Source: Chloroflexota bacterium (GTDB taxonomy: Bacteria; Chloroflexota; Dehalococcoidia; Lucifugimonadales; UBA826). Taken from it: a stretch of DNA of 64,000 nucleotides. The notes beneath the pieces were generated by a model, which had not been told where the DNA came from, made no database searches, and was given only the letters and a program-made list of their open reading frames with translations. The stretch spans positions 6,761-70,760 of the forward strand of contig QGNN01000001.1 of NCBI GenBank assembly GCA_003228105.1, given 5' to 3'. Of the stretch, positions 26,190-40,550 are shown piece by piece (the first letter of the stretch is position 1; every line of letters begins with the position of its first letter). A program made the translations under genes and the position numbers.

Positions 26190-26265
26190 CGGGGCGTAGC
26201 GCAGTTGGTAGCGCGCCACGTTCGGGACGTGGAGGTCGCTGGTTCGAGTCCAGTCGCCCCGACCA
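26190..26265 (+). tRNA. tRNA-Pro (anticodon CGG), 3' CCA encoded
   Basis: Cloverleaf read by hand: acceptor CGGGGCG/CGCCCCG, D arm GCGC-agttggta-GCGC, anticodon arm CCACG-ttCGGga-CGTGG, variable loop aggtc, T arm GCTGG-ttcgagt-CCAGT, discriminator A, then CCA. Confidence 0.9.
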
Positions 26266-27535: not shown

Positions 27536-28426
27536 TTAGGGAGATATCACCAGTTCGCTCAAAAGTTTCTTTGTAGACACAATGTGTTTATTTAAGCGCA
27601 TTTTTTCCGGGGAGATACCCAGTGCTAAACCCAATAACTGGGGCAGGTGGATTATAGGTAAATCTATTTCACGTTTTCTTGCGGATGCTGCATTTGGTTG
27701 GTATCCATCCAAATTGAGGTGACATAGAGGGCATGGGGTAACCATGGCATCGGCACCCCGATCTTTGGCATCTATCGTGTGGTTTGCAACCATGTTGACT
27801 GAATTTTCTGGGTTTATAGTCAAAATAGGAAAACCACAGCACAGGGTTTTGCCTGGAAAGTCTACTACTTCCCCACCCACACTTTCGATAACCATTTCCA
27901 ATGCTTGTTTGCGACCAGGGTTTTCAGCGAACCCTAATGCTTTTGTGGGCCTAACGATATAACAACCGTAAAACGGAGCCAGTTTCAACCCGTTAAGTTT
28001 GTTTACTATTTTTGATTCAAGGAAATCTATTCCTAAATCTTCTGCAATTATCCACAACAAATGCTTAGGGTCTGCCGTCCCTTTGTATTCAAGACCTTCT
28101 TCTTTCAAGTCCTCATTAATTGATGCCAAATATTCAGGGTCTGCCAGAAGTCGTTCGTTAGCCTGAGACATAACTCCCTGGCATGTGCTGCATATAGTCA
28201 TCAAAGGATTCCCGGACTTTTCTGCCATAGCAAAGGTTCGAGCATTAAGGGTATCGCCAAGCCTCAGGTTTTTTTCCTGTAAAACCCCTGCACCAGTGCA
28301 AGAAGCACCCTTCAGCGACTCTTCATCTAGCTCAATGTCTAGTATTCTACATACTTCGATTGTGGCGGAATATAATTCTGGGCATGCGCCTCTTGATACG
28401 CATCCTGGATAAAAAGCATATTTCAT
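27536..28426 (-). CDS. HdrB-like CCG-domain subunit of succinate dehydrogenase/fumarate reductase (SdhE type)
   Basis: 296 aa. MKYAFYPGCVS...CTGAG and ...LCCGFP...CPLCHLNL form two cysteine-rich CCG-type domains. It overlaps the sdhB stop by 4 nt. Confidence 0.7.
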   Translation of the reverse strand: MKYAFYPGCVSRGACPELYSATIEVCRILDIELDEESLKGASCTGAGVLQEKNLRLGDTLNARTFAMAEKSGNPLMTICSTCQGVMSQANERLLADPEYLASINEDLKEEGLEYKGTADPKHLLWIIAEDLGIDFLESKIVNKLNGLKLAPFYGCYIVRPTKALGFAENPGRKQALEMVIESVGGEVVDFPGKTLCCGFPILTINPENSVNMVANHTIDAKDRGADAMVTPCPLCHLNLDGYQPNAASARKREIDLPIIHLPQLLGLALGISPEKMRLNKHIVSTKKLLSELVISP

Positions 28427-29379
28427 TTCTTAGTCTCAACCTTTTCAAAGATTCTTCTAACGTTTTCTACTCCCGGAATACTTTTATGGAATATGGGTGG
28501 AACCTTACCGGCGCGTTGAGATCTAATCACTAATGGGATTAGCCCTATCATTGCCTTGATATTAAATATACCGAAACTTTTTATCACCAATTTTTTTTCA
28601 TCAAGCCATCCACTATGCTTGACTGAATTAGTGAATTCATTGGCGTGCCTAGCTCCGTTGGTATTCGTGTATCCTGATTCCATCACCTGTTCACGCAATG
28701 CCATTATTCTATCCATTGGGGCTACCCCTTTCGGACAAACTTCAACGCACTTCATACATCTCGTGCAATCCCACACTCCTCCGGACTCATTAAGAGTCTT
28801 AAACCGTTGTTGGGCTGAATCATCCCTGGGGTCCCCAACGAATCTGTATGATTTAGCGAGTGCTGCCGGGCCCAGAAAATTGGAATCGACTTCCATGACG
28901 GTGCAATCTGAGACACATGCTCCACAAAGTATGCACGATACTACTCCTGCAAGATGGAGCATATCTTCATCAGGGGCTAGATACTCTGTTTCGGGCTCTT
29001 CTCCCTCTGGCTGTAACCATGGTTCCACTGCTCGGATCTTTTCCCAAAACGGCTGGAAATCTACGACCAAGTCTTTTATTACTGGTAAGTTACCAGCAGG
29101 TTCCACAGTTATGGTATTCCCATTCTCAGATAGCGAATCTACGATTTTTGTGTTGCAAGCAAGACCTGCCTCACCATTAACCTTCACCGCACAGGACCCA
29201 CATATTGCACTTCGGCATGAACATCTTAAACTCAATGTTCCGTCAATTTCTTCTCTTATACGAATTAAACCATCTAGAACTGTGGATGAGGCATCCATAT
29301 CCATCTGGTATTCTTGGAAATGGGCTACTGTATCAGTCGATTCAGGATCATATCGCCTAACGTTAAATTTGACTTCCAT
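28423..29379 (-). CDS. sdhB: succinate dehydrogenase/fumarate reductase iron-sulfur subunit
   Basis: 2Fe-2S CSCRSAICGSCAV, 4Fe-4S CILCGACVSDC and 3Fe-4S CTRCMKCVEVCP are present, followed by a C-terminal extension of roughly 70 aa. Confidence 0.85.
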   Translation of the reverse strand: MEVKFNVRRYDPESTDTVAHFQEYQMDMDASSTVLDGLIRIREEIDGTLSLRCSCRSAICGSCAVKVNGEAGLACNTKIVDSLSENGNTITVEPAGNLPVIKDLVVDFQPFWEKIRAVEPWLQPEGEEPETEYLAPDEDMLHLAGVVSCILCGACVSDCTVMEVDSNFLGPAALAKSYRFVGDPRDDSAQQRFKTLNESGGVWDCTRCMKCVEVCPKGVAPMDRIMALREQVMESGYTNTNGARHANEFTNSVKHSGWLDEKKLVIKSFGIFNIKAMIGLIPLVIRSQRAGKVPPIFHKSIPGVENVRRIFEKVETKK

Positions 29380-29400
29380 TAATAAAAATCCTTTTGGTTA

Positions 29401-31098
29401 TTAGTATTGCCTTACCACTGGCTCCCAATCGGTGATAACAACGTCTTTGTAGGATAGGTCATGTCCTCCGTCCTTATTTTGGGAAACCAATATGTGCTTC
29501 AGCCAGTTCTCATCATCCCTATCTGGCAGGTCAGTTCGTGTATGAGCTCCTCTGCTCTCTGTTCGATCTGCCGCACTCACAGCTATTGATTCAGCACATT
29601 CCAGCATGAAACCTAGTTCCAAGGTGAAAAGAAGATTGGTGTTGAAGGTGCTGCCTTTATCGGTTACATACACATCTTCGGCTCTTTTTTTCACTGATTC
29701 AATCTTTTCTATTCCTTCACGCATACTGTTTTCATCTCGGAATACCCCGAAGTGCTCTTTCATAGCGGTTCCCATATCTAAGCGAATTTGTCCAAATGAC
29801 TCATTTTTTCCGTTTGCTAACAATTTTTGAATATTGTTCTTGTCATCGTCAGCCGCTGATTCATCTACATTCAAATGCTGTGTGGATTTGACCATTTCAG
29901 CGGCGTGTACTCCCGACCTCCTGCCAAAAACGAGTGTGTCTAGCAGCGAGTTTGCTCCGAGCCTATTGCCTCCATGTACACTAACACATGCCACCTCGCC
30001 AGCTGCGTACAAACCAGGCACACTAGTTTCACCGTCAACGCTCGCTTTCACTCCTCCCATTTGGTAATGCATCCCGGGCATTATAGGTACTGGTTCCTTA
30101 ACCATGTCTACGTTGGCGAAATCCATTGCCAATTCACGTATCTGGGATAATCGCTCACTTATGTATTTCTCTCCAAGATGCCTCAGGTCAAGAAGAACAC
30201 ACCCATCTAGTCCTCGACCTTCGTTGATTTCGGTCTGTTCACATCTTGAGACAACATCACGGGATGCCAATTCCTTAAATTCTGGTGCGTATTTGAGCAT
30301 AAATCTATCATTTTCAGAATTTAACAAATAGGCACCTTCACCACGAGCAGCCTCACTGATCAAAACCCCGCTACCTTTTAGAGTGGTTGGGTGGTATTGC
30401 ACCATTTCCATATCCATTAATGAAGCCCCCGCCCTGTATCCCAAGCTCATCCCATCACCAGTACATATCATTGCGTTCGTGCTTGGTTCAAATACTCTAC
30501 CCAAGCCTCCGGTTGCCAGGATTACTGCTTTCGCCCGAACAACCTCGATTTTTCCACTACGGATATCCATCATCACCGCCCCTCCACATTTACCGTCCCT
30601 TACAATTAAAGACAGTACAAACCACTCCTCATATACCAAGGCACCGGCTTTCAAAATCTGTTCATACAAAACGTGTAAAAGAGCTTGACCGGTGAAATCT
30701 GCTACAAAAAAAGTTCTTGCCTCTCGTTGGCCACCGAAGGCTCTAGTACCAAGCCTTCCTTCTTCATCCCTATTAAATATGGCGCCCATATGCTCCATAG
30801 CAATGACCTCACTACCTGCCTCTTCACACATCAGAGCAATCGCGTCTTGATCTCCTAAAAAATCACTTCCCTTTATGGTGTCGTAAGCGTGGTCCCGCCA
30901 GTCATCCCCTCTATCTGTTAGAGCGGCATTTATCCCGCCTTGCGCAGCACTAGAATGGCTTCTGACTGGATGCACTTTGGATACCACTGCAACGTCAGCT
31001 CCAAGTTCTTTAGCCGACAAAGCAGCTCTCATACCAGCGAGGCCTGCACCGATTATCAAAATATCGTGGTCAAGCATATTACCTGAATTAACCCCCAC
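29401..31098 (-). CDS. sdhA: succinate dehydrogenase/fumarate reductase flavoprotein subunit
   Basis: 565 aa with IIGAGLAGMRAAL, RSHSSAAQGG, HPTT, RGEGAYLLN and HYQMGG. The start may instead be ATG 31077. Confidence 0.9.
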   Translation of the reverse strand: MGVNSGNMLDHDILIIGAGLAGMRAALSAKELGADVAVVSKVHPVRSHSSAAQGGINAALTDRGDDWRDHAYDTIKGSDFLGDQDAIALMCEEAGSEVIAMEHMGAIFNRDEEGRLGTRAFGGQREARTFFVADFTGQALLHVLYEQILKAGALVYEEWFVLSLIVRDGKCGGAVMMDIRSGKIEVVRAKAVILATGGLGRVFEPSTNAMICTGDGMSLGYRAGASLMDMEMVQYHPTTLKGSGVLISEAARGEGAYLLNSENDRFMLKYAPEFKELASRDVVSRCEQTEINEGRGLDGCVLLDLRHLGEKYISERLSQIRELAMDFANVDMVKEPVPIMPGMHYQMGGVKASVDGETSVPGLYAAGEVACVSVHGGNRLGANSLLDTLVFGRRSGVHAAEMVKSTQHLNVDESAADDDKNNIQKLLANGKNESFGQIRLDMGTAMKEHFGVFRDENSMREGIEKIESVKKRAEDVYVTDKGSTFNTNLLFTLELGFMLECAESIAVSAADRTESRGAHTRTDLPDRDDENWLKHILVSQNKDGGHDLSYKDVVITDWEPVVRQY

Positions 31099-31231: not shown

Positions 31232-31261
31232 TTGACCTCTATGGGTATGAAGTGTTACAAT
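31232..31261 (+). promoter_or_regulatory. promoter of the ilv-leu leader
   Basis: TTGACC (31232-31237), an 18-nt spacer ending in TGt, then TACAAT (31256-31261). Confidence 0.5.
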
Positions 31262-31290
31262 GCCACGTCTTGGAAAAAGGTAAATAGATT

Positions 31291-31612
31291 TGCTGTGACG
31301 GGGAGTAGTAACAGAAGGGTTGTGCGAATAGAGAGTCAGATATTTTGCTGGAAGTCTGATGCACAAAGACTGCGAACTCGCCCCCGAGCATCTGTCCTGA
31401 ACATTAGGAGTCAATAATGCAGTTAGTGATGGAAAAACTCAACACTTTTGCATGTTATATTGTGACCTTCTGACATAAAGTAAGGACAGGCGATAGCTAC
31501 GTTATAGCTCAACGAGTGGTTCTGATGAAGTGTTTCACAGGACAATTTGGGTGGTACCACGGGAGTGGTTTTTGTTATCCCGTCCCAGTTTAAGGGCGGG
31601 ATTTTTTTTTGA
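31291..31612 (+). promoter_or_regulatory. T-box riboswitch leader, Leu specifier (CUC)
   Basis: Stem I (31291-31390) contains a GA/K-turn base (UGUGACGGGG...CCCCCGAGCA), AGUAGUAA opposite GAA-CUC-G (CUC at 31377-31379), an AGAGAG bulge, the distal helix UCAGAU/GUCUGA and the loop AUUUUGCUGGAA. The T-box sequence AAUUUGGGUGGUACCACGG lies at 31544-31562, followed by the terminator. Confidence 0.8.
31577..31610 (+). terminator. T-box-controlled intrinsic terminator
   Basis: ATCCCG(t)CCC pairs with GGGCGGGAT across a 7-nt loop and is followed by a T9 run. It lies 70 nt upstream of ilvB. Confidence 0.75.
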
Positions 31613-31682
31613 GACCCCAGCCCTTTTAATCGCAATTAAGAATTTGCTAATTATTTATATGTAGGTTAATTAAGGAAGTTGA

Positions 31683-33377
31683 ATGATAAAGAAAGGGTCA
31701 CAGATTGTCTGTGAAAGTTTGCTCAGAGAAGGGTGTAACGTTGTTTTCGGAATACCCGGTGGGGCAATTTTGCCTTTATACCAGGCATTACCAGAATATC
31801 CTAAACTCCGCCATATTTTGACGCGACACGAACAAGGCGCTTCTCTAGCAGCTGATGGATACGCTAGGGTCACAGGTAAGCCCGGAGTGGCTTTTGCAAC
31901 ATCGGGTCCAGGGGCTACAAACCTTGTGACAGGAATAGCTTCAGCCCAAATGGATTCCGTACCACTTGTGATTGTAACTGGACAAGTTAATAGCTGGGCT
32001 ATAGGGTCAGATGCCTTTCAGGAAACTGATATCACAGGGATAACCTTGCCTATCACAAAACATAACCTTTTAGTCATGGATGCCTCAGAGATAGCGACTT
32101 CAATCAAAGAAGCATTTTATATAGCAAACTCGGGCAGACCAGGCCCAGTATTAGTAGACATACCTCGGGACGTTTTTGTGCAGGAAGTTGAATATGAGGA
32201 ACCAGGAGAGTTGAATTTACCCGGGTATAGTCCCAATTTCTCCGGGCATTCTGGTCAGATACGAAAGGCTGCTAATTTGATTAATGAATCAGAAAAGCCC
32301 GTTATTGTTGCGGGGCACGGAGTAATAATATCAAAGGCATATGATGAGTTAAAAGCATTGGCTGAAAAGGCTCAGATACCAGTCATTACTACCTTGCTAG
32401 GTATTAGCTGTTTTCCAGAGGACCATGTCTTATGGACTGGCTGGCCGGGCATGCACGGAATGGCATATTCTAGTCTCGCAATCGAGGAAGCGGATCTAAT
32501 TATTGCACTGGGTATGCGCTTTGATGATCGAATAACTGGCAACCCATCTAAGTTTGCTTTGAATTCGAAAAAGATACATATAGATGTTGATCCTTCAGAA
32601 ATCGGAAAAAACATTGCCGTCGATGTGCCTATAGTGGGAGATGTTAAAGAAGTTCTAAACCGAATGAATAATCATGTTGTAAATGCGACCCACCCTACAT
32701 GGTTGAAAAGAATAGATGTCTTGAAGGAGGATCATCCATCTTTGCAGATACCTGAGACCTCTAAATTATTGGCCCGACAGGTAGTCAAAGACATTTCTGA
32801 CGAAACCAGAGGGGGTGCCACGATAGTGACCGGTGTTGGCCAACATCAGATGTGGGCTGCACAGCATTACCGTTTCAAAAAACCTGGTACATTTCTTACT
32901 TCGGGCGGTTTAGGAACGATGGGGTATGAAGTACCTGCCGCCATGGGAGCACAGGTGGCTGACCCTGATTCAACCGTTTGGTCTATTGCCGGTGATGGAG
33001 GCTTTCAAATGACACTTTGCGAATTAGCAACCATTGCCGAAAACAGGCTGCCAGTTAAATTCGCAATACTGAATAATGGATTTTTAGGCATGGTTAGGCA
33101 ATGGCAAGAGATATTTTTCGATAGTTCATATGTTTCAACCGCCTACACGGGCAACCCTGACTTTGTTCGTTTGGCTGAGGCATATGGCATAAAAGGCATC
33201 AGGGTTACGGATAAAACACAGGTAAAAACAGCAATTGCTGAGGCGATGGATCACGATGGCCCTGTATTGGTTGATTTCATAGTGGAACAAGAGGAAAACG
33301 TATATCCCATGATTCCATCAGGCATGACGGTCTTTGACATGATAGAGGAGCCGGTATCGGAGAAGGTAACAACTTGA
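31683..33377 (+). CDS. ilvB: acetolactate synthase large subunit
   Basis: 564 aa ThDP enzyme with GGLGTMGYEVPAAMGA and IAGDGGFQM. RBS AAGGAAG. Confidence 0.9.
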   Translation: MIKKGSQIVCESLLREGCNVVFGIPGGAILPLYQALPEYPKLRHILTRHEQGASLAADGYARVTGKPGVAFATSGPGATNLVTGIASAQMDSVPLVIVTGQVNSWAIGSDAFQETDITGITLPITKHNLLVMDASEIATSIKEAFYIANSGRPGPVLVDIPRDVFVQEVEYEEPGELNLPGYSPNFSGHSGQIRKAANLINESEKPVIVAGHGVIISKAYDELKALAEKAQIPVITTLLGISCFPEDHVLWTGWPGMHGMAYSSLAIEEADLIIALGMRFDDRITGNPSKFALNSKKIHIDVDPSEIGKNIAVDVPIVGDVKEVLNRMNNHVVNATHPTWLKRIDVLKEDHPSLQIPETSKLLARQVVKDISDETRGGATIVTGVGQHQMWAAQHYRFKKPGTFLTSGGLGTMGYEVPAAMGAQVADPDSTVWSIAGDGGFQMTLCELATIAENRLPVKFAILNNGFLGMVRQWQEIFFDSSYVSTAYTGNPDFVRLAEAYGIKGIRVTDKTQVKTAIAEAMDHDGPVLVDFIVEQEENVYPMIPSGMTVFDMIEEPVSEKVTT

Positions 33378-33916
33378 AATCATCAGAAAAACACACAATA
33401 ACAGCATTGGTTGAAGATCGTGCGGGTGTCTTAAACCGCATATCTAGTATGTTCAGGAGACGTGGTTACAACATATCAAGCTTGGCTGTCGGTAAGAGTG
33501 AATCTGCTGGCTTATCTAGAATGACGTTTGTAGTTGATGGGGATGCTAAGACAGTTGAAATGGTTGTTAAGAACCTGCACAAGTTAGTTGAAGTCATTAA
33601 AGTATCCGATATATCTGAAGGAAACGCGGTGTCGCGGGAGCTAGCCTTGATAAGGGTTAAATGCGATGTAACGAGTCGTAGTGAAATAATGCAGATTGTC
33701 GATATATTTAGGGCTAAGATAGTAGACGTCTCGCAGGATACCTTGATCATTGAAGTAACGGGTAATGAGGATAAAGTTAATTCACTCGTGGATTTACTGG
33801 GTAGTTTTGGGGTTTTTGAGGTAATGAGAACTGGCACAGTGGCCATGAGTAGAAGGACGTCCTTTGAGCAAGATAAGCCTGTGAGCAGTCCAACAGTTTT
33901 GGAGAATGCATCTTAA
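33374..33916 (+). CDS. ilvN: acetolactate synthase small (regulatory) subunit
   Basis: 180 aa, ACT domain [29 protein letters not shown]. The TTG start overlaps the ilvB stop. Confidence 0.85.
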
Positions 33917-33945
33917 ATAGAAAATTTTGTACAAGGAGAATTTAT

Positions 33946-34944
33946 ATGGCGAAAATGTATTACGAATCGGATGCAGACATGAGTCTGTTAGAGGGCAAGA
34001 CTGTAGGTATTATTGGGTACGGTAGCCAAGGTCACGCTCATGCGTTAAACCTGAAGGATTCTGGGGTAGATGTATGTGTAGGATTGTACGAAGGTAGTAA
34101 GAGTTGGCCTATAGCAGAATCGGAAGGCCTAAAGGTGGCCACAGTTTCAGAAGCGGCTGCCCTGTCAGACGTTATTATGGTACTGGTTCCTGATCATCTT
34201 CAGGCTTCAGTTTACAATGAATCCATATTACCGCACCTTTTGCCAGGGAAGACTTTAATGTTCGCCCATGGGTTTAATATACATTTTGACGCGATAAATC
34301 CACCTGAAAATGTCGACGTATCCATGGTCGCGCCCAAAGCACCTGGACATAGGATGAGGGAAGTTTATACGAAAGACTCTGGGGTGCCCGGGTTACTTGC
34401 AATCCACCAAGATTCAACTGGAGGTGCTCATGCATTGGGCCTGGCTTACGCAAGAGGTGTAGGTTGTACTAGGGCTGGGGTGCTGGATACTACGTTTAAA
34501 GAAGAGACAGAGACAGATCTTTTTGGTGAGCAGGCTGTTTTATGTGGGGGAGTTGCGGCCTTGGTAAAGGCTGCATTTGAGACTTTGGTAGAGGCAGGGT
34601 ACCAACCAGAATCAGCTTATTTTGAATGTATGCACGAGTTGAAACTTATAGTGGATTTGTTCTATCAAGGCGGTATGGAATACATGAGATACTCTGTGAG
34701 TGATACGGCTGAATATGGAGATTACACTAGAGGACCCGTAGTAGTAGATGAAAATGTGAAAAAAAATATGCGAAAGGTACTGGACCAAATCCAAGATGGT
34801 ACATTTGCGAAAGAATGGATCACGGAAAACGATGAGGGCAGGCCAACATTCAATAGGTTGCGGGAGGAAAATGCCGGTCATCAAATAGAAGAAGTGGGTA
34901 AAGAGCTTAGGGGTATGATGTCCTTTCTCTCTGATCCAGATTAG
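33946..34944 (+). CDS. ilvC: ketol-acid reductoisomerase
   Basis: 332 aa with [17 protein letters not shown] and [11 protein letters not shown]. Confidence 0.95.
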
Positions 34945-35128
34945 GACTGGTTCCATATATGAATAATATGAAATGTAAGTCAATAGACGAGGTATCCTAC
35001 GTAGTTCGCCATGTTGATTTGGTCTTGGTAAGGCTGAATCAGGCGGACTACGGAATCCTGCGAATTTGCAATGGCAATTAATGCAGATGAATCTTTAGTA
35101 ATTCTAGACTAATAAAAAGGAGACCAAA

Positions 35129-36661
35129 ATGTCCCAAGAGAAAGTCACAATTTTTGATACTACCCTTAGAGACGGGGAGCAGTCAGCGGGAATAGGGCTT
35201 ACTACCCAAGAGAAGTTAGAAATCGCGAAACAATTGGAGAGATTAGGAGTTGATGTCATAGAGGCCGGATTCGCCGCGGCATCGCCTGGAGACCTACAGG
35301 CGGTTCAAAAAATCGCCGCAGAGATTAGAACTCCAAAAATAGCTTCTCTTGCAAGGTGTTACATAGACGACGTGGATAAGGCTTGGGAAGGGGTTAAAGG
35401 AGCAGCCAGACCTCGTATTCATGTTTTTATTAGCAGTTCTGACATACAAATAATGAATCAATTGCGCAAGAATCCAGAGGAAGTACTCGATATTGCTGTG
35501 GCCTCGGTTGAGAGGGCGAAAACATATTGTGATGACGTAGAATTTTCTCCCATGGATGCGACTCGGACTGATCCTGAATATTTGTATCAAATGCTGGAAG
35601 CGGTCATACATGCTGGTGCCACCACAGTCAATATAGCGGATACCGTCGGGTACATTATCCCGTCAGAATTTGGAGAAAGAATCGAAGATATCAAAAGAAA
35701 TGTACCCAACATAGATAAAGCCACATTGAGTGTTCACTGCCACAATGACCTTGGTCTTTCTGTAGCTAATAGTTTGGCTGCAGTGAAAGCGGGGGTCAGA
35801 CAGGTCGAAGGGTGCATCAATGGACTTGGCGAACGGGCAGGAAATGCATCGCTTGAAGAGATTATTATGGCTATTGAAACGAGAAACGATTTTTTTGATG
35901 TCTCAACTAATATAGATACCACTCAGATATACAGGACGAGTAGATTGGTGAGTGACATCACGGGCTTCCCAGTACAACCAAACAAGGCGATAGTGGGAGC
36001 TAATGCATTCCGACACGCCTCCGGTATTCATCAGGACGGTGTTTTGAAGGATAGCAGCACCTTCGAAATTATGGATCCTAAATCCATAGGATGGCCAAGC
36101 AACTCATTTGTCTTAGGGAAACTAAGTGGCCGGGCTGGTCTGAGGGCTAGATTAGAAGAACTTGGATTCCGTTTGGAGCAGGTGGAACTCAACGAAGTTT
36201 TTGAATCATTTAAGGAGTTAGCAGACCGTAAGAGAGAGGTCACAGATCAAGACCTTGAGACTCTACTATCAACCAACCGTAGAACTGCGGATATTCCAAC
36301 CGTATATGATCTTGAGCATGTTCAAGTATCTACCGGTGATCATGGCGTACCGACAGCAACAGTGAAAATCAGGAACCCAGAAGGGGAGCAAATTACAGAC
36401 GCAGCTACTGGTACAGGGCCTGTTGACGCGGTGTATATGGCTATAAATCGAGTAATAGGGATAGAGAATAGGCTCACTGAATTTAGAGTTGATTCAGTTA
36501 CGGAAGGAATAGATGCTATCGGAGATGTGACAATCAGAATAGAACTCCAAGGTGATGCCTTTGTAGGCAGAGGTAGCGACACAGACATTATAGTCGCAAG
36601 TGCTAAAGCTTACATGAACGCTCTAAACCGGTCTCTGGCGGTTAATCCCAACGCGGGATAA
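35129..36661 (+). CDS. leuA: 2-isopropylmalate synthase
   Basis: 510 aa with [12 protein letters not shown] and HCHNDLGL plus the C-terminal LeuA dimerisation/regulatory domain. Confidence 0.9.
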
Positions 36662-36725
36662 TTCAAAAACTATTGTTTTTATCCTAAGAAAAATCAAATT
36701 CCTAGAACCCAAAACGGAGTGTTAA

Positions 36726-38126
36726 ATGGTAGCTAAAACCATGTTTGATAAGATATGGGAGGCTCATCTGGTTAAGGAAGCAGAAGGTCAACCCTCACTT
36801 TTATATATAGACCTTCATCTTGTTCACGAAGTTACTTCGCCTCAAGCTTTTGAAGGGCTCAGAATGGCTGAGAGACCTGTAAGGCGTCCAGATTTGACGC
36901 TCGCGGTGGCTGACCACAACACCCCGACGTGGGACCTTTCCCTTCCGATAACAGACCCTATCGCTAAGCAGCAATTGGATGTTCTGACTCAAAACTGTGA
37001 GGAATTTGGAGTGACTCTTCACGATAGATTTAGCCCTTTGCAGGGCATTGTTCATGTTATAGGGCCAGAGCAAGGGCATACTCAACCCGGCAAGACAATC
37101 GTGTGTGGTGACAGCCACACTTCTACACATGGTGCTTTCGGAGCATTTGCTATAGGAATAGGAACATCCGAAGTTGAACACGTGTTGGCTACTCAGACAC
37201 TTAGGCAATTCAAACCGAAAACCATGGAGGTGAGAGTCGAAGGACCTTTGCCATCAGGAGTTTCTGCAAAGGATGTTGTGTTAAGCATAATTGGTGAAAT
37301 TGGCACAGCAGGAGCGACCGGTCATGTAATCGAATATACAGGAGAAGGGATAACCTCTCTGTCGATGGAAGGCCGAATGACTGTGTGCAATATGAGCATC
37401 GAAGCTGGTGCAAGGGCCGGCATGGTAGCACCTGATCAAGTCACATTCGATTATATGAGAGGAAGGGATAATGTCCCACAAGCTGAAGATTTTAAAAAGG
37501 CAGTAAGTGAGTGGAGAAAACTTTCCACTGATGACGACGCAGAATATGACGAGGTGGTCATTATTAAGTCTGAGGATCTAGAGCCTCATGTCAGTTGGGG
37601 TACCAACCCGGGAATGGTAGCTTCGATATCATCCCGAATACCAAGTCCCGATGACTATTCTGATGAAGGAGAAAGAGAGTCTGTTGAAAGAGCCTTAACT
37701 TACATGGACCTGGAACCCGGGACTAGAATACAAGATATACCTGTAGATCGTATTTTTATCGGTTCCTGTACCAATTCAAGAATAGAAGACTTGCGGGCGG
37801 CTGCGCGAGTAGCCGAAGGGAAAAAAGTTAGTGATGCTGTCTATGCTATGGTCGTGCCTGGTTCTAATGCCATAAAACGCCAAGCAGAAGATGAGGGACT
37901 CGACAAAATATTCATAGGAGCTGGGTTTGATTGGAGAGAGGCGGGTTGCTCTATGTGTCTGGGTATGAACCCTGACATATTACAGCCGGGAGAAAGATGC
38001 GCTTCCACTTCAAACAGAAACTTTGAAGGAAGACAGGGCAGGGGAGGCAGAACTCATTTGGTTAGCCCAGAAATGGCGGCAGCAGCAGCGATAGCAGGGC
38101 ATTTCGTTGATATACGTGAATGGTAA
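36726..38126 (+). CDS. leuC: 3-isopropylmalate dehydratase large subunit
   Basis: 466 aa aconitase-family protein with [21 protein letters not shown] and CSMCLGMN. Confidence 0.95.
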
Positions 38127-38150
38127 ATAAAAGAACAAGGAAGAACTAAA

Positions 38151-38765
38151 ATGGAACCTTTCGTTTCCTTAAATGCCAAACTAGCTCCTATTAATAGAGT
38201 TAATGTAGATACTGATCAAATCATTCCGAAACAATTTTTAAAGCGGGTTGAGAGAACAGGATTCGGTCAATTTTTGTTCAACGATTGGAGGTTTATGCCC
38301 GACGGTTCTGAGAATAAAGATTTTATTCTAAATCAAAAAAGATACAGTGCGGCTGAGATACTTGTGAGTGGAAGGAATTTCGGATGTGGTTCCTCTCGCG
38401 AGCACGCCCCGTGGGCCCTGCAAGACTACGGGTTTAAATGTATTATCGCTCCCAGTTTTGGGGATATTTTTTTCAGCAACTGTTTTCAAAATGGTGTTTT
38501 GCCAGTAGTTTTACCTGAAGATACAGTGGCTCAAATAATTGAGAATTCAGAAAATGATCCGGAATATAGGATTAATATAGATTTAGAATCACAAAGGATA
38601 TGGGATGAGAATGAGGAAGTAGTGGCTGAGTTTTCTATTGAACCATTCAGACGTCACTGCATGCTGAACGGACTAGATGATATAGGTCTTACCTTGGAAG
38701 ACGAGACGGATATAGCTGTATTCGAATCTGGGCGTTCGAACCGGGGGGGCATTTTAAGTATCTAG
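38151..38765 (+). CDS. leuD: 3-isopropylmalate dehydratase small subunit
   Basis: 204 aa with GRNFGCGSSREHAPWAL. Confidence 0.9.
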   Translation: MEPFVSLNAKLAPINRVNVDTDQIIPKQFLKRVERTGFGQFLFNDWRFMPDGSENKDFILNQKRYSAAEILVSGRNFGCGSSREHAPWALQDYGFKCIIAPSFGDIFFSNCFQNGVLPVVLPEDTVAQIIENSENDPEYRINIDLESQRIWDENEEVVAEFSIEPFRRHCMLNGLDDIGLTLEDETDIAVFESGRSNRGGILSI

Positions 38766-38786: not shown

Positions 38787-40550
38787 TCAGGTTCGTCTAA
38801 TGCCTTTGATTCGGTCTGTGATCGAGTGCTGAAGAAGATTCAATTCTCTGGTTACTGTACTTCTGAAATATGAACTGTATTCACCAATATTTTCAAATTT
38901 TTTATAGCGTTCCCTGAGTCTTTTTCTGGTCGAGTTGTTTTGAACTTCAAACAGTTGTTGTAATAATGCTCTTTTAAGCAATCTGGATGATTCATGATGA
39001 TCGGCGTGTGCACCACCGTCAGGTTCTGAAACGATTACGTCTACTATTCCAAGGGCTTTACAATCTGAAGCCGTGAGTTTTAGCGACTCAGCCGCTTCAT
39101 TCGCCCTGTTTTTGTCTCTATAAATAAGATTTGCGGCCTCTTCAGGTGATATGGCGGAAAAAATAGCATTTTCCATCATGATTACCCTGTCAGCTATTCC
39201 TAATGAAAGAGCCCCTCCGCTTCCACCTTCTCCAATCACCACTGCAATAGTAGGTGCTTTTTGATCAGCCAAAAGAGACATTGTCGTTGCGATGGAATGA
39301 GCGAGTCCTCGATTTTCTGCTTCCAGGGAAATATTCGCTCCTGGGGTGTCGATTAACGAAATTATTGGCAAATTGAATTTCTCGGCAATTTTTATAGCTC
39401 TCTGACATTTTCGGAACCCTTCTGGCAATATTCTTAATACTTCTCCCGACACGGGGTCTTTTGAACGATTCTGACCGATGATAACAACGGTTTGGCCTCC
39501 TAATTGCCCGATTCCACAGCTTATTGCCGGGTCGTCAGAATAGTGTTTATCCCCATGCATCTCCACAAAATTATCCAGTATGCGTGCCATATAATCCAAG
39601 GATGTAGGCCGTGATGTATGACGAGCTAATTGAACAGAATGCCAGGCCACATTTTTTGGATTATTAACAGAAATTTCACCACTTCTATTCGTTCTGTTTA
39701 AAGTAAATTCCTTTCGAAGGAGATCTAATATGACAGAGACAACTTCTCTTATCTCAGTTCGAGAAGCAATAGCATCAATCAGCCCGTGTTCGAGATGTGA
39801 CTCAGAGGTTTGGTGGTCAAAGTTGGGTGAATCATCTTTAGTTTGAGTTATACCTATAGGATTATATCCCAAAACAGCCCCTGGTTCAGCGATTGTTATA
39901 TCGGCTAGATTGGCAAAGCTGGCGAAAGCCTGTCCTGTAGATGGATTTGAGAAAATAGATATAAACGGTAATCTTTTGGAGTTATGCTTGTTGACTGCGA
40001 TCGTGGTTTTGGCCATCTGCATCAATGACAAAACTCCTTCTTGGATTCGAGACCCTCCTCCCGATATAATGGCCAATAGAGGCAATTTCTTCTTTTCGGC
40101 TGTTCCTACTGCAAGGGAAATTTTCTGTCCCACAGCACACCCCATGGACCCTCCCATAAATCCGAAATCGAATGAGATAATCATACAAATAATCCCATCA
40201 ATACTGCAGGTACCAGTCAAAACAGCCTCTGTGATTCCAGTCCGTTTTTGATCTTTATACAAGGTTTCCTTGTATGAAGCGGAAGATGTGAAGGAAATCG
40301 GGTCAACAGATACCAAATTTCTGTTAATTTCTTTAAATGATTCAAAATCAACTATAGAATTGACTCTGTCTCTAGCACTCATGCTGTAATGAAATCCACA
40401 GGTATCACATATTTTATACCTTTTATAAACATCTGATTTATTCAGATCAGAACTGCACATCAAACAGTATTTGTTTTCGTCCTGAACTGTTGTGTCGGAT
40501 TCATCTCTATTCAATAATCGGGACATCATACTCGAAAAATAACTAACCAT
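38787..40550 (-). CDS. acetyl-CoA carboxylase carboxyltransferase, fused beta (AccD) and alpha (AccA) subunits
   Basis: 587 aa. The N-terminal Zn ribbon CLMC...CDTC and GGSMG belong to AccD. The C-terminal half (GGQTVVIIGQNR...IISLIDTPGA...GEGGSGGAL) belongs to AccA. Confidence 0.8.
   Translation of the reverse strand: MVSYFSSMMSRLLNRDESDTTVQDENKYCLMCSSDLNKSDVYKRYKICDTCGFHYSMSARDRVNSIVDFESFKEINRNLVSVDPISFTSSASYKETLYKDQKRTGITEAVLTGTCSIDGIICMIISFDFGFMGGSMGCAVGQKISLAVGTAEKKKLPLLAIISGGGSRIQEGVLSLMQMAKTTIAVNKHNSKRLPFISIFSNPSTGQAFASFANLADITIAEPGAVLGYNPIGITQTKDDSPNFDHQTSESHLEHGLIDAIASRTEIREVVSVILDLLRKEFTLNRTNRSGEISVNNPKNVAWHSVQLARHTSRPTSLDYMARILDNFVEMHGDKHYSDDPAISCGIGQLGGQTVVIIGQNRSKDPVSGEVLRILPEGFRKCQRAIKIAEKFNLPIISLIDTPGANISLEAENRGLAHSIATTMSLLADQKAPTIAVVIGEGGSGGALSLGIADRVIMMENAIFSAISPEEAANLIYRDKNRANEAAESLKLTASDCKALGIVDVIVSEPDGGAHADHHESSRLLKRALLQQLFEVQNNSTRKRLRERYKKFENIGEYSSYFRSTVTRELNLLQHSITDRIKGIRRT

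Follow-up and report, generated by a model that had tools for sequence, protein, structure and literature searches.

Which signal governs a joined set of ilv and leu genes in a bacterium of the phylum Chloroflexota, and through which RNA elements might it act? The genes lie in a 64,000-nt stretch of contig QGNN01000001.1 (assembly GCA_003228105.1, positions 6,761 to 70,760 of the forward strand; G+C content 42%), which we analysed as a whole and refer to as the window. They form the operon ilvBNC-leuACD, and the 584 nt between ilvB and the divergent sdhA gene hold a leader of the T-box family. We conclude with high confidence that this leader is a T-box riboswitch of class I and of the transcriptional type, that its specificity is for tRNA-Leu, and that it gates ilvBNC-leuACD.

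A search of the whole window with Rfam 15 yielded two matches at the gathering threshold, the T-box family RF00230 and a tRNA. The RF00230 match (31286-31590, + strand; 99.8 bits, gathering score 93, E = 8e-21) is untruncated, spanning model positions 1-219 of 219, and no other Rfam family was found at E <= 0.1 between 31100 and 38900. An initial annotation, made from the letters alone, had described the sdhA-ilvB gap as 580 nt long with all hallmark T-box elements in the right order, and had proposed an RF00230 search as a check. The order of the elements stands and the search gave a significant match; the size of the gap needed correction. Every motif named at that time, including the two promoter hexamers TTGACC (31232) and TACAAT (31256), the Stem I base with its K-turn, the Specifier Loop, the AGAGAG bulge and the distal loop, sits where it had been placed, both by direct reading and by motif coordinates, and for Stem I the Rfam alignment agrees. 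The combination of motifs is far beyond chance. What is observed at this locus comprises membership of the family, the anatomy of its motifs, helices that exclude each other, the assignment of the specifier and the identity of the target genes.

The leader is shared with a broad set of relatives. The best IlvB relatives in a species-representative genome collection are Dehalococcoidia or Chloroflexota metagenome-assembled genomes (MAGs; 54-69% identity), and a large protein collection contains identical IlvB on at least 21 contigs together with a graded series at 97-82% identity. The relative GCA_029935935.1 has 97% IlvB identity. Some relatives carry the name 'SAR202 cluster bacterium', and several stem from marine samples, TARA among them; with Dehalococcoidia MAGs as closest relatives, the 'Chloroflexota-like' genome first suggested was well judged. 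Another 18 Dehalococcoidia-type loci have a T-box at or above the gathering score directly 5' of ilvB, a further one reaches 89.2 bits, and an ilvB T-box is found in all SAR202 relatives fetched (82-97% IlvB identity). An exact 29-nt leader pattern gave no match in a metagenome contig scan, and the same leader is present on JGI and ENA contigs reached via protein look-up.

In Stem I, the K-turn base, the S-turn AGUA/GAA, the codon and a purine 3' of it by the closing helix are all found within 31296-31389 (Table 1); the DNA of the Specifier Loop reads AGTAGTAA at 31304 and GAACTCG at 31374. In the distal part, AGAGAG and AUUUUGCUGGAA align to AGAGA and GgUUGGUGaaA of the Rfam model and are conserved in relatives at the sequence level, which indicates that the distal platform for docking on the tRNA elbow is present.

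The identity of the specifier was examined by aligning 28 distinct related leaders from Dehalococcoidia/SAR202 contigs; L081-L086 are at least 99.6% identical and hence uninformative for covariation. Both helices flanking the Specifier Loop covary (columns 9-12/108-111 below and 20-23/97-100 above), with compensatory double changes in seven of the eight predicted pairs. Of the 28 leaders, 24 have GAA-CUC-G on the 3' side of the loop and one (L007) has CAA-CUC-G, and this covariation-anchored alignment therefore places CUC followed by G in 25 of 28, as the initial annotation had read it; for the lineage of the window, covariation did not put a different codon in the specifier position. Relative to the Rfam consensus the 3' side is short by one base (GAA-CUCG against GAAauuca), so the register has to be deduced, and a true specifier of AAC, ACU or UCG would give the leader another specificity. 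We consider such a shift very improbable. The rule that the codon directly precedes the purine next to the closing helix yields CUC-G, with the closing helix fixed by covariation; the same rule applied to three subtype leaders with 8-nt loops yields AUC and GUA, also codons for branched-chain amino acids; and the regulated genes make leucine.

These three subtype leaders, from other Dehalococcoidia (L001:2698-2950, L006:2653-2914 and L016:2654-2917), carry in the same columns GUA then G (L001) or AUC (L006 and L016), and are further marked by AGCGAG in place of AGAGAG and GAGUA in place of AGUAGUA. The codons GUA and AUC are read as specifying Val and Ile, the remaining two pathway products, which suggests that orthologous ilvB leaders differ in the branched-chain amino acid that they sense. 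The AUC specifier in L006 and L016 precedes C, not a purine.

The 3' half of the leader provides the switch. Stem II with an insertion, the F-box and Stem III all align to the RF00230 model, an agreement at the level of the alignment; the Stem IIA/B pseudoknot is a putative pairing. The antiterminator consists of helix A1 (31548-31551/31584-31587) and helix A2 (31559-31563/31579-31583) around the 7-nt bulge UGGUACC (31552-31558), and this explicit structure evaluates to -9.9 kcal/mol. The T-box sequence with its UGGU bulge lies where the initial annotation had it, and the bulge is invariant in the 20 relatives tabulated; pairing of UGGU with ACCA implies a tRNA with an A73 discriminator. The intrinsic terminator (-14.8 to -15.3 kcal/mol, z = -3.1) has its arms in the DNA at 31577 (ATCCCGTCCC) and 31594 (GGGCGGGAT), followed by a T-run at 31602-31610. 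Arms and T-run are as first described; the end of the 9-U tract lies 72 nt 5' of the ilvB ATG (31683; 70 nt in the initial annotation). As a minor correction, the 't' of the terminator takes part in the stem as a U-G wobble under ViennaRNA, for 9 bp and an 8-nt loop. Terminator and antiterminator share 31579-31587 and are therefore mutually exclusive; the alternative containing the T-box sequence, whose formation had been proposed as a check, is available to this RNA. The antiterminator is weaker than the terminator, and tRNA would thus be needed for it to persist, which is the canonical arrangement.

A hairpin CCCGUCCC...GGGNCGGG followed by a U-run occurs in all 30 related leaders surveyed (28 by script, and two with an interrupted UUUAUUUUU tract by eye), which places the leader in the transcriptional class. 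Translational T-boxes are known outside Firmicutes (PMC1262725; TBDB), and a leader acting like that of actinobacterial ileS would sequester the ilvB Shine-Dalgarno (SD) sequence instead. This is extremely unlikely here: the helix that competes with the antiterminator precedes a 9-U tract and ends well short of the ATG, the ilvB ribosome-binding site (31672-31678) is not involved in it, and the same hairpin with its U-run recurs in every one of the relatives.

The sigma-70-type promoter upstream matches 10 of 12 consensus positions and has a TG-extended -10. Three promoter-like sites were found in the region against 2.0 +/- 1.3 expected from shuffles, and the match alone is not above chance. 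TTGAC(C/T) and TGnTAnAAT are kept at a constant distance from Stem I in relatives with 82-97% IlvB identity, and it is this conservation, not the match score, that supports the promoter.

Binding of tRNA, sensing of its charging and read-through would follow the established T-box mechanism. Transcription would start a few bases past the -10 element, at about 31268, and the nascent leader would fold Stem I, whose Specifier Loop would show CUC to the anticodon GAG of tRNA-Leu and whose distal platform of AG bulge and loop would stack on the tRNA elbow. With uncharged tRNA, the 3' ACCA end is predicted to pair with UGGU of the T-box bulge (31552-31555) and to stabilise the weak antiterminator (31548-31587), and RNA polymerase would read into ilvBNC-leuACD. 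With charged tRNA the antiterminator would stay unstabilised, the terminator (31577-31602 and the U-tract) would form, and transcription would stop 72 nt before ilvB.

The genes downstream fit this specificity. The NCBIfam matches for the operon genes pass the curated cut-offs, and the equivalogs agree with the initial assignment of ilvBNC-leuACD downstream and sdhA upstream, so that the regulated genes belong to the metabolism of the specifier's amino acid. We found no terminator or promoter consensus in the plus-strand intergenic gaps from ilvB to leuD, and the same gene order is present on the contigs of relatives. The operon (31683-38765) lacks leuB (3-isopropylmalate dehydrogenase), ilvD and ilvE; the rest of the window was not searched for these genes.

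Several observations weigh against the assignment as a tRNA-Leu T-box that controls the whole operon. The RF00230 score is only 7 bits over the gathering score, a small margin that is explained by the cost of a 72-nt insertion in Stem II. Among the Leu codons in 12 genes of the window CUC is the least used (8%), and the sole tRNA in the 64 kb is tRNA-Pro(CGG), not tRNA-Leu(GAG). CUU and CUC combined account for 27% of the Leu codons in these 12 genes, and therefore some reader of CUY codons must presumably exist in the genome; NNC specifiers are a general preference of T-boxes (57.6%; TBDB). Finally, the T-box may not be the sole control on leuACD, given a conserved hairpin and open reading frame (ORF) before leuA. 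Taken with the Rfam match, the exclusive helices, the specifier alignment and the NCBIfam gene assignments, the interpretation first offered, a Leu T-box over ilvBNC-leuACD, is supported.

Table 1. Positions in the window of the T-box leader, the regulated operon, the ilvC-leuA spacer element and neighbouring features.
Feature	Position	Strand	Basis
Sigma-70-type promoter: -35 TTGACC (31232-31237), 18-nt spacer, TG-extended -10 TACAAT (31256-31261)	31232-31261	+	Consensus scan
Stem I, K-turn base GUGAC...CGAGC	31292-31389	+	Rfam alignment, motif coordinates, covariation
Specifier Loop: 5' side AGUAGUAA, 3' side GAACUCG	31304-31311, 31374-31380	+	Rfam alignment
Specifier codon CUC (Leu), then purine G31380	31377-31379	+	Rfam alignment, relatives
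AG bulge AGAGAG	31330-31335	+	Rfam alignment
Distal loop AUUUUGCUGGAA (DNA ATTTTGCTGGAA at 31342)	31342-31353	+	Rfam alignment
Stem II, base CUGUCCU (31392-31398) / AGGACAG (31483-31489)	31392-31489	+	Rfam alignment
72-nt clade-specific apical extension of Stem II	31402-31473	+	Insertion relative to Rfam consensus
Mini-ORF AGGAG-N6-ATG, peptide MQLVMEKLNTFACYIVTF	31417-31473	+	Open frame in Stem II extension
Stem IIA/B region with F-box ACGUUA (31499-31504), and Stem III (~31516-31543)	31490-31543	+	Rfam alignment
T-box sequence AAUUUGGGUGGUACCACGG (DNA AATTTGGGTGGTACCACGG at 31544)	31544-31562	+	Rfam alignment
Antiterminator	31548-31587	+	Rfam alignment, explicit structure
Intrinsic terminator: 9-bp stem 31577-31585/31594-31602, 8-nt loop, U-tract	31577-31610	+	Terminator scan
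Regulated operon ilvBNC-leuACD	31683-38765	+	
ilvB	31683-33377	+	NCBIfam equivalog
ilvN	33374-33916	+	NCBIfam equivalog
ilvC	33946-34944	+	NCBIfam equivalog
Conserved element in ilvC-leuA spacer	34959-35081	+	Folding, covariation, ORF conservation
Spacer hairpin	35000-35052 (model match 34990-35062)	+	Fold and covariance model
leuA	35129-36661	+	NCBIfam equivalog
leuC	36726-38126	+	NCBIfam equivalog
leuD	38151-38765	+	NCBIfam equivalog
sdhA, divergent from ilvB	29401-31098	-	NCBIfam equivalog
tRNA-Pro(CGG)	26190-26265 (Rfam match 26190-26262)	+	Rfam, ARAGORN

The element before leuA is a conserved RNA structure of its own. The ilvC-leuA spacer, 184 nt long, has a folding energy of -54.9 kcal/mol (z = -4.55, 0 of 200 shuffles), a low value that is due to a long hairpin without a U-tract (35000-35052). 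The same hairpin is recognisable by sequence in the same spacer of distant Dehalococcoidia loci. A covariance model built from six copies (R1) matches only between ilvC and leuA, in the window, in L001, L004, L007, L008, L009 and L012 and in SAR202 L183-L193 (copies at L001:6317-6389, L004:6354-6426, L007:6528-6600, L008:4785-4857, L009:7436-7508, L012:6501-6573, L183:7355-7427 and L189:7308-7380); it has no instance in about 80 ilvB loci from other phyla, and the hairpin matches no Rfam family. Among 10 distinct sequences, 13 of the 23 pairs have changed on both sides and 91.7% of cells are paired, as compared to at most 47% when the partners are slid; none of 500 shuffles reaches these values.

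The window hairpin is overlapped by a 40-codon ORF (MNNMKCKSIDEVSYVVRHVDLVLVRLNQADYGILRICNGN) whose ATG (34959) lies 15 nt past the ilvC stop codon. All 10 sequences have an ORF that traverses the hairpin in the same frame, with an upstream in-frame ATG, and a strong SD precedes it in the GC-rich members (GGAGG-N6-7-ATG in L007, L008 and L009; AAGGAG-N7-ATG in L012). The peptides share the core E-V-x3-V-[RH]-x3-L-V-L-A-[RG]-L-x2-A-D-[YC]-x2-L; gene callers did not call the ORF. Changes in the hairpin arms are compensatory and nonsynonymous (GUA/UAC to GCA/UGC; CGC/GCG to CAC/GUG), a signature of selection at the RNA level. The apical codon is Ala (GCU, GCA, GCG or GCC) in nine sequences and Val (GUA) in the window, and the Leu codons of the ORF alternate between UUG, CUG and UUA, which looks like selection at the coding level.

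The spacer element may be a second control point for leuACD. It might place leuACD under ribosome-dependent control, couple the translation of ilvC and leuA, or be a site for RNase III or RNA stability. The T-box could thus gate the whole operon while the hairpin and its ORF of Leu and Val codons tune leuACD additionally and separately, a division of labour that is possible and, in our judgement, somewhat doubtful. In its favour are folding far beyond shuffles, the confinement of a covarying hairpin to this spacer in 10 distinct Dehalococcoidia/SAR202 sequences, and an ATG with an open frame in each of them, with strong SDs in four and a conserved LVLA(R/G)L core; the actinobacterial LEU element 5' of leuA offers a published analogue (PMC1262725). 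Against it, the sequence downstream of the hairpin showed neither a terminator nor a U-tract nor a conserved alternative pairing, the frame was passed over by the gene callers, and no conserved pairing joins the apex to the leuA ribosome-binding site; a 23-bp hairpin could just as well serve in RNase III processing or in RNA stability. In Bacillus subtilis, ilv-leu mRNA is processed. Such an element would refine T-box control of leuACD and does not exclude or contradict it. As a tentative model, to which we give a little less than an even chance, the SAR202/Dehalococcoidia ilv-leu operon has two RNA control points, the Leu T-box and a previously undescribed cis-element before leuA. With the same reserve, the latter would tie leuACD, separately from ilvBNC, either to RNA processing or to the translation of codons for Leu and Val.

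Two more specific assignments of the spacer element were rejected. Pairing of the apex, with its Leu-Val-Leu codons, to the leuA ribosome-binding site exceeds chance in the window alone (P = 0.02); in six of nine sequences it does not. Identity with the actinobacterial LEU element was set aside for a simple hairpin that lacks a conserved pairing of its Leu codons with the SD.

The only departure of the leader from the RF00230 consensus, and one that the initial annotation did not mention, is the 72-nt insertion at the apex of Stem II. Its fold is that of a rod-like hairpin (-26.9 kcal/mol, z = -2.9), and it is common to relatives at 89% IlvB identity or more; other leaders with the extension are L167, L169, L171, L173 and L175, at about 517-590. 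L087 (70% IlvB identity) has an 89-nt insertion of largely different sequence in the same place (L087:126-214), which was analysed separately since MAFFT misaligned it. Relatives at 82-84% IlvB identity have shorter or unrelated Stem II apices. We take the insertion to be a peripheral helix that has expanded specifically in this lineage.

A mini-ORF opens within this extension. Its translation, by which a ribosome would alter the T-box structure and make control depend on translation as well, is improbable. All seven insert-bearing variants keep UUAGGAG-N4-6-AUG, L087 among them although its insert otherwise diverges; their frames run open over 18-24 codons, and a CUC codon occurs in every one of these ORFs. 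Conservation is higher in the UUAGGAG strand than in its proposed pairing partner, and RNAalifold dropped the outer UUAGGAG/CUUCU helix of the extension; the conservation of this strand is the single observation on which the idea of a mini-ORF survives. On the other side, the variable columns fall 5/4/5 by codon position, with no third-position bias, six of the eight variable codons alter the amino acid, the stop codon moves, and by chance the frame would stay open with a probability of about 0.19-0.25 per test. Both AGGAG and AUG are base-paired within predicted helices, of which the inner ones are retained in the consensus fold, and the relatives at 82-84% identity keep the T-box without the mini-ORF. 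The mini-ORF is probably not a functional coding sequence. A leader-peptide attenuator was also considered for it and rejected: its codons include two Leu, two Val and one Ile with no regulatory run, the variable columns show no position bias, and it is absent in the 82-84% relatives.

The ilv-leu operon of B. subtilis is under the control of CodY, TnrA and CcpA in addition to its T-box. Its CUC-specifier leader was reportedly described by Marta in 1996 (as cited in PMC2494555). The T-box leader of B. subtilis ilvBHC-leuABCD is listed with a CUC specifier in the PMC3766115 supplement. The window leader resembles it in the specifier, the terminator/antiterminator switch, the position directly 5' of ilvB, the joining of ilv and leu genes and the presence of all canonical T-box modules in the Rfam alignment. 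It differs in its host, a marine SAR202/Dehalococcoidia member of the Chloroflexota rather than a Firmicute, in the absence of leuB from the operon and in the 72-nt apical extension of Stem II.

T-boxes of the phylum have been catalogued before. The surveys PMC2494555 and PMC3766115 (supplement file 2) list ileS, trpE and trpB-like targets in Dehalococcoides, and glyS, ileS, serS, thrS, trpS, valS and trpB in Chloroflexus, Roseiflexus and Herpetosiphon. The leader described here belongs to the same phylum and the same RNA family, and differs in its ilv-leu target and in that the ilvB T-box is widespread in Dehalococcoidia/SAR202 (30 distinct leaders). The two surveys give no Leu T-box or ilv-leu target in Chloroflexi, and a full-text literature search found no paper that joins SAR202 and T-boxes; an earlier listing elsewhere, TBDB included, is possible in both cases. 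Outside Firmicutes, a Leu T-box lies directly 5' of leuA in Geobacter and Pelobacter (PMC2494555). The window leader is likewise a leucine-pathway T-box outside Firmicutes, but it stands in front of ilvB, and the element upstream of leuA is a separate one of another kind.

The two lineage-specific structures also have partial counterparts. Staphylococcal glyS T-boxes carry a lineage-specific insertion, stem Sa, a clade-restricted extra helix in an otherwise canonical T-box (PMC9177973), as is the insertion in the window; stem Sa is part of the terminator/antiterminator domain, whereas the insertion in the window extends the apex of Stem II. In the actinobacterial LEU element (Seliverstov et al. 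2005) a run of Leu codons in a pseudoknot pairs with the leuA SD (PMC1262725). The spacer element shares with it a conserved RNA structure 5' of leuA, the overlap with a short ORF containing Leu codons and the lack of a classical terminator, and differs in being a single 23-bp hairpin inside an operon, after ilvC; the likeness is one of description, the sequences not having been compared directly.

The T-box mechanism is ordinary, textbook biology, and the value of the leader is mainly one of annotation. It yields a firm, testable prediction for the uncultured, abundant deep-ocean SAR202 bacteria, namely that the branched-chain operon would be induced when tRNA-Leu is uncharged, and it extends the catalogued Chloroflexota T-box regulon to ilv-leu, a target unlisted for the phylum in the surveys PMC2494555 and PMC3766115 (supplement). 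Orthologous ilvB leaders appear to sense Leu in most lineages and Ile or Val in a sister subtype, and their Stem II ranges from short to about 90 extra nucleotides, a variation in specifier and Stem II that is useful for studying the evolution of T-box specificity and peripheral helices. The hairpin and small ORF before leuA are the most promising lead; if regulatory, they would represent a new type of leucine-operon leader.

Apart from two single-nucleotide polymorphisms, the leader is identical over six contigs from different samples. At L083:2576 (window 31258) a population variant turns the -10 TACAAT into the consensus TATAAT, and the second polymorphism (G/A, window 31661) lies near the ilvB ribosome-binding site.

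The minus-strand genes upstream of the leader are sdhA, sdhB and an HdrB-like membrane-anchor subunit by NCBIfam. This succinate dehydrogenase/fumarate reductase cluster (27536-31098) has no classical SdhC/D genes; the best match of its HdrB/CCG-domain subunit is the MFR SdhE-type anchor, below the cut-off, which suggests a non-classical type E enzyme. Downstream, a 587-aa ORF (38787-40550, - strand), convergent with leuD across a 21-nt gap, has an AccD-like N-terminal half and an AccA-like C-terminal half and looks like a fused acetyl-CoA carboxylase carboxyltransferase. The tRNA-Pro(CGG) gene of the window lies about 5 kb 5' of the T-box. In L002 a tRNA-Pro(CGG) gene (L002:11-86) is only about 170 nt 5' of the T-box, and the interval between them is without sdh genes.

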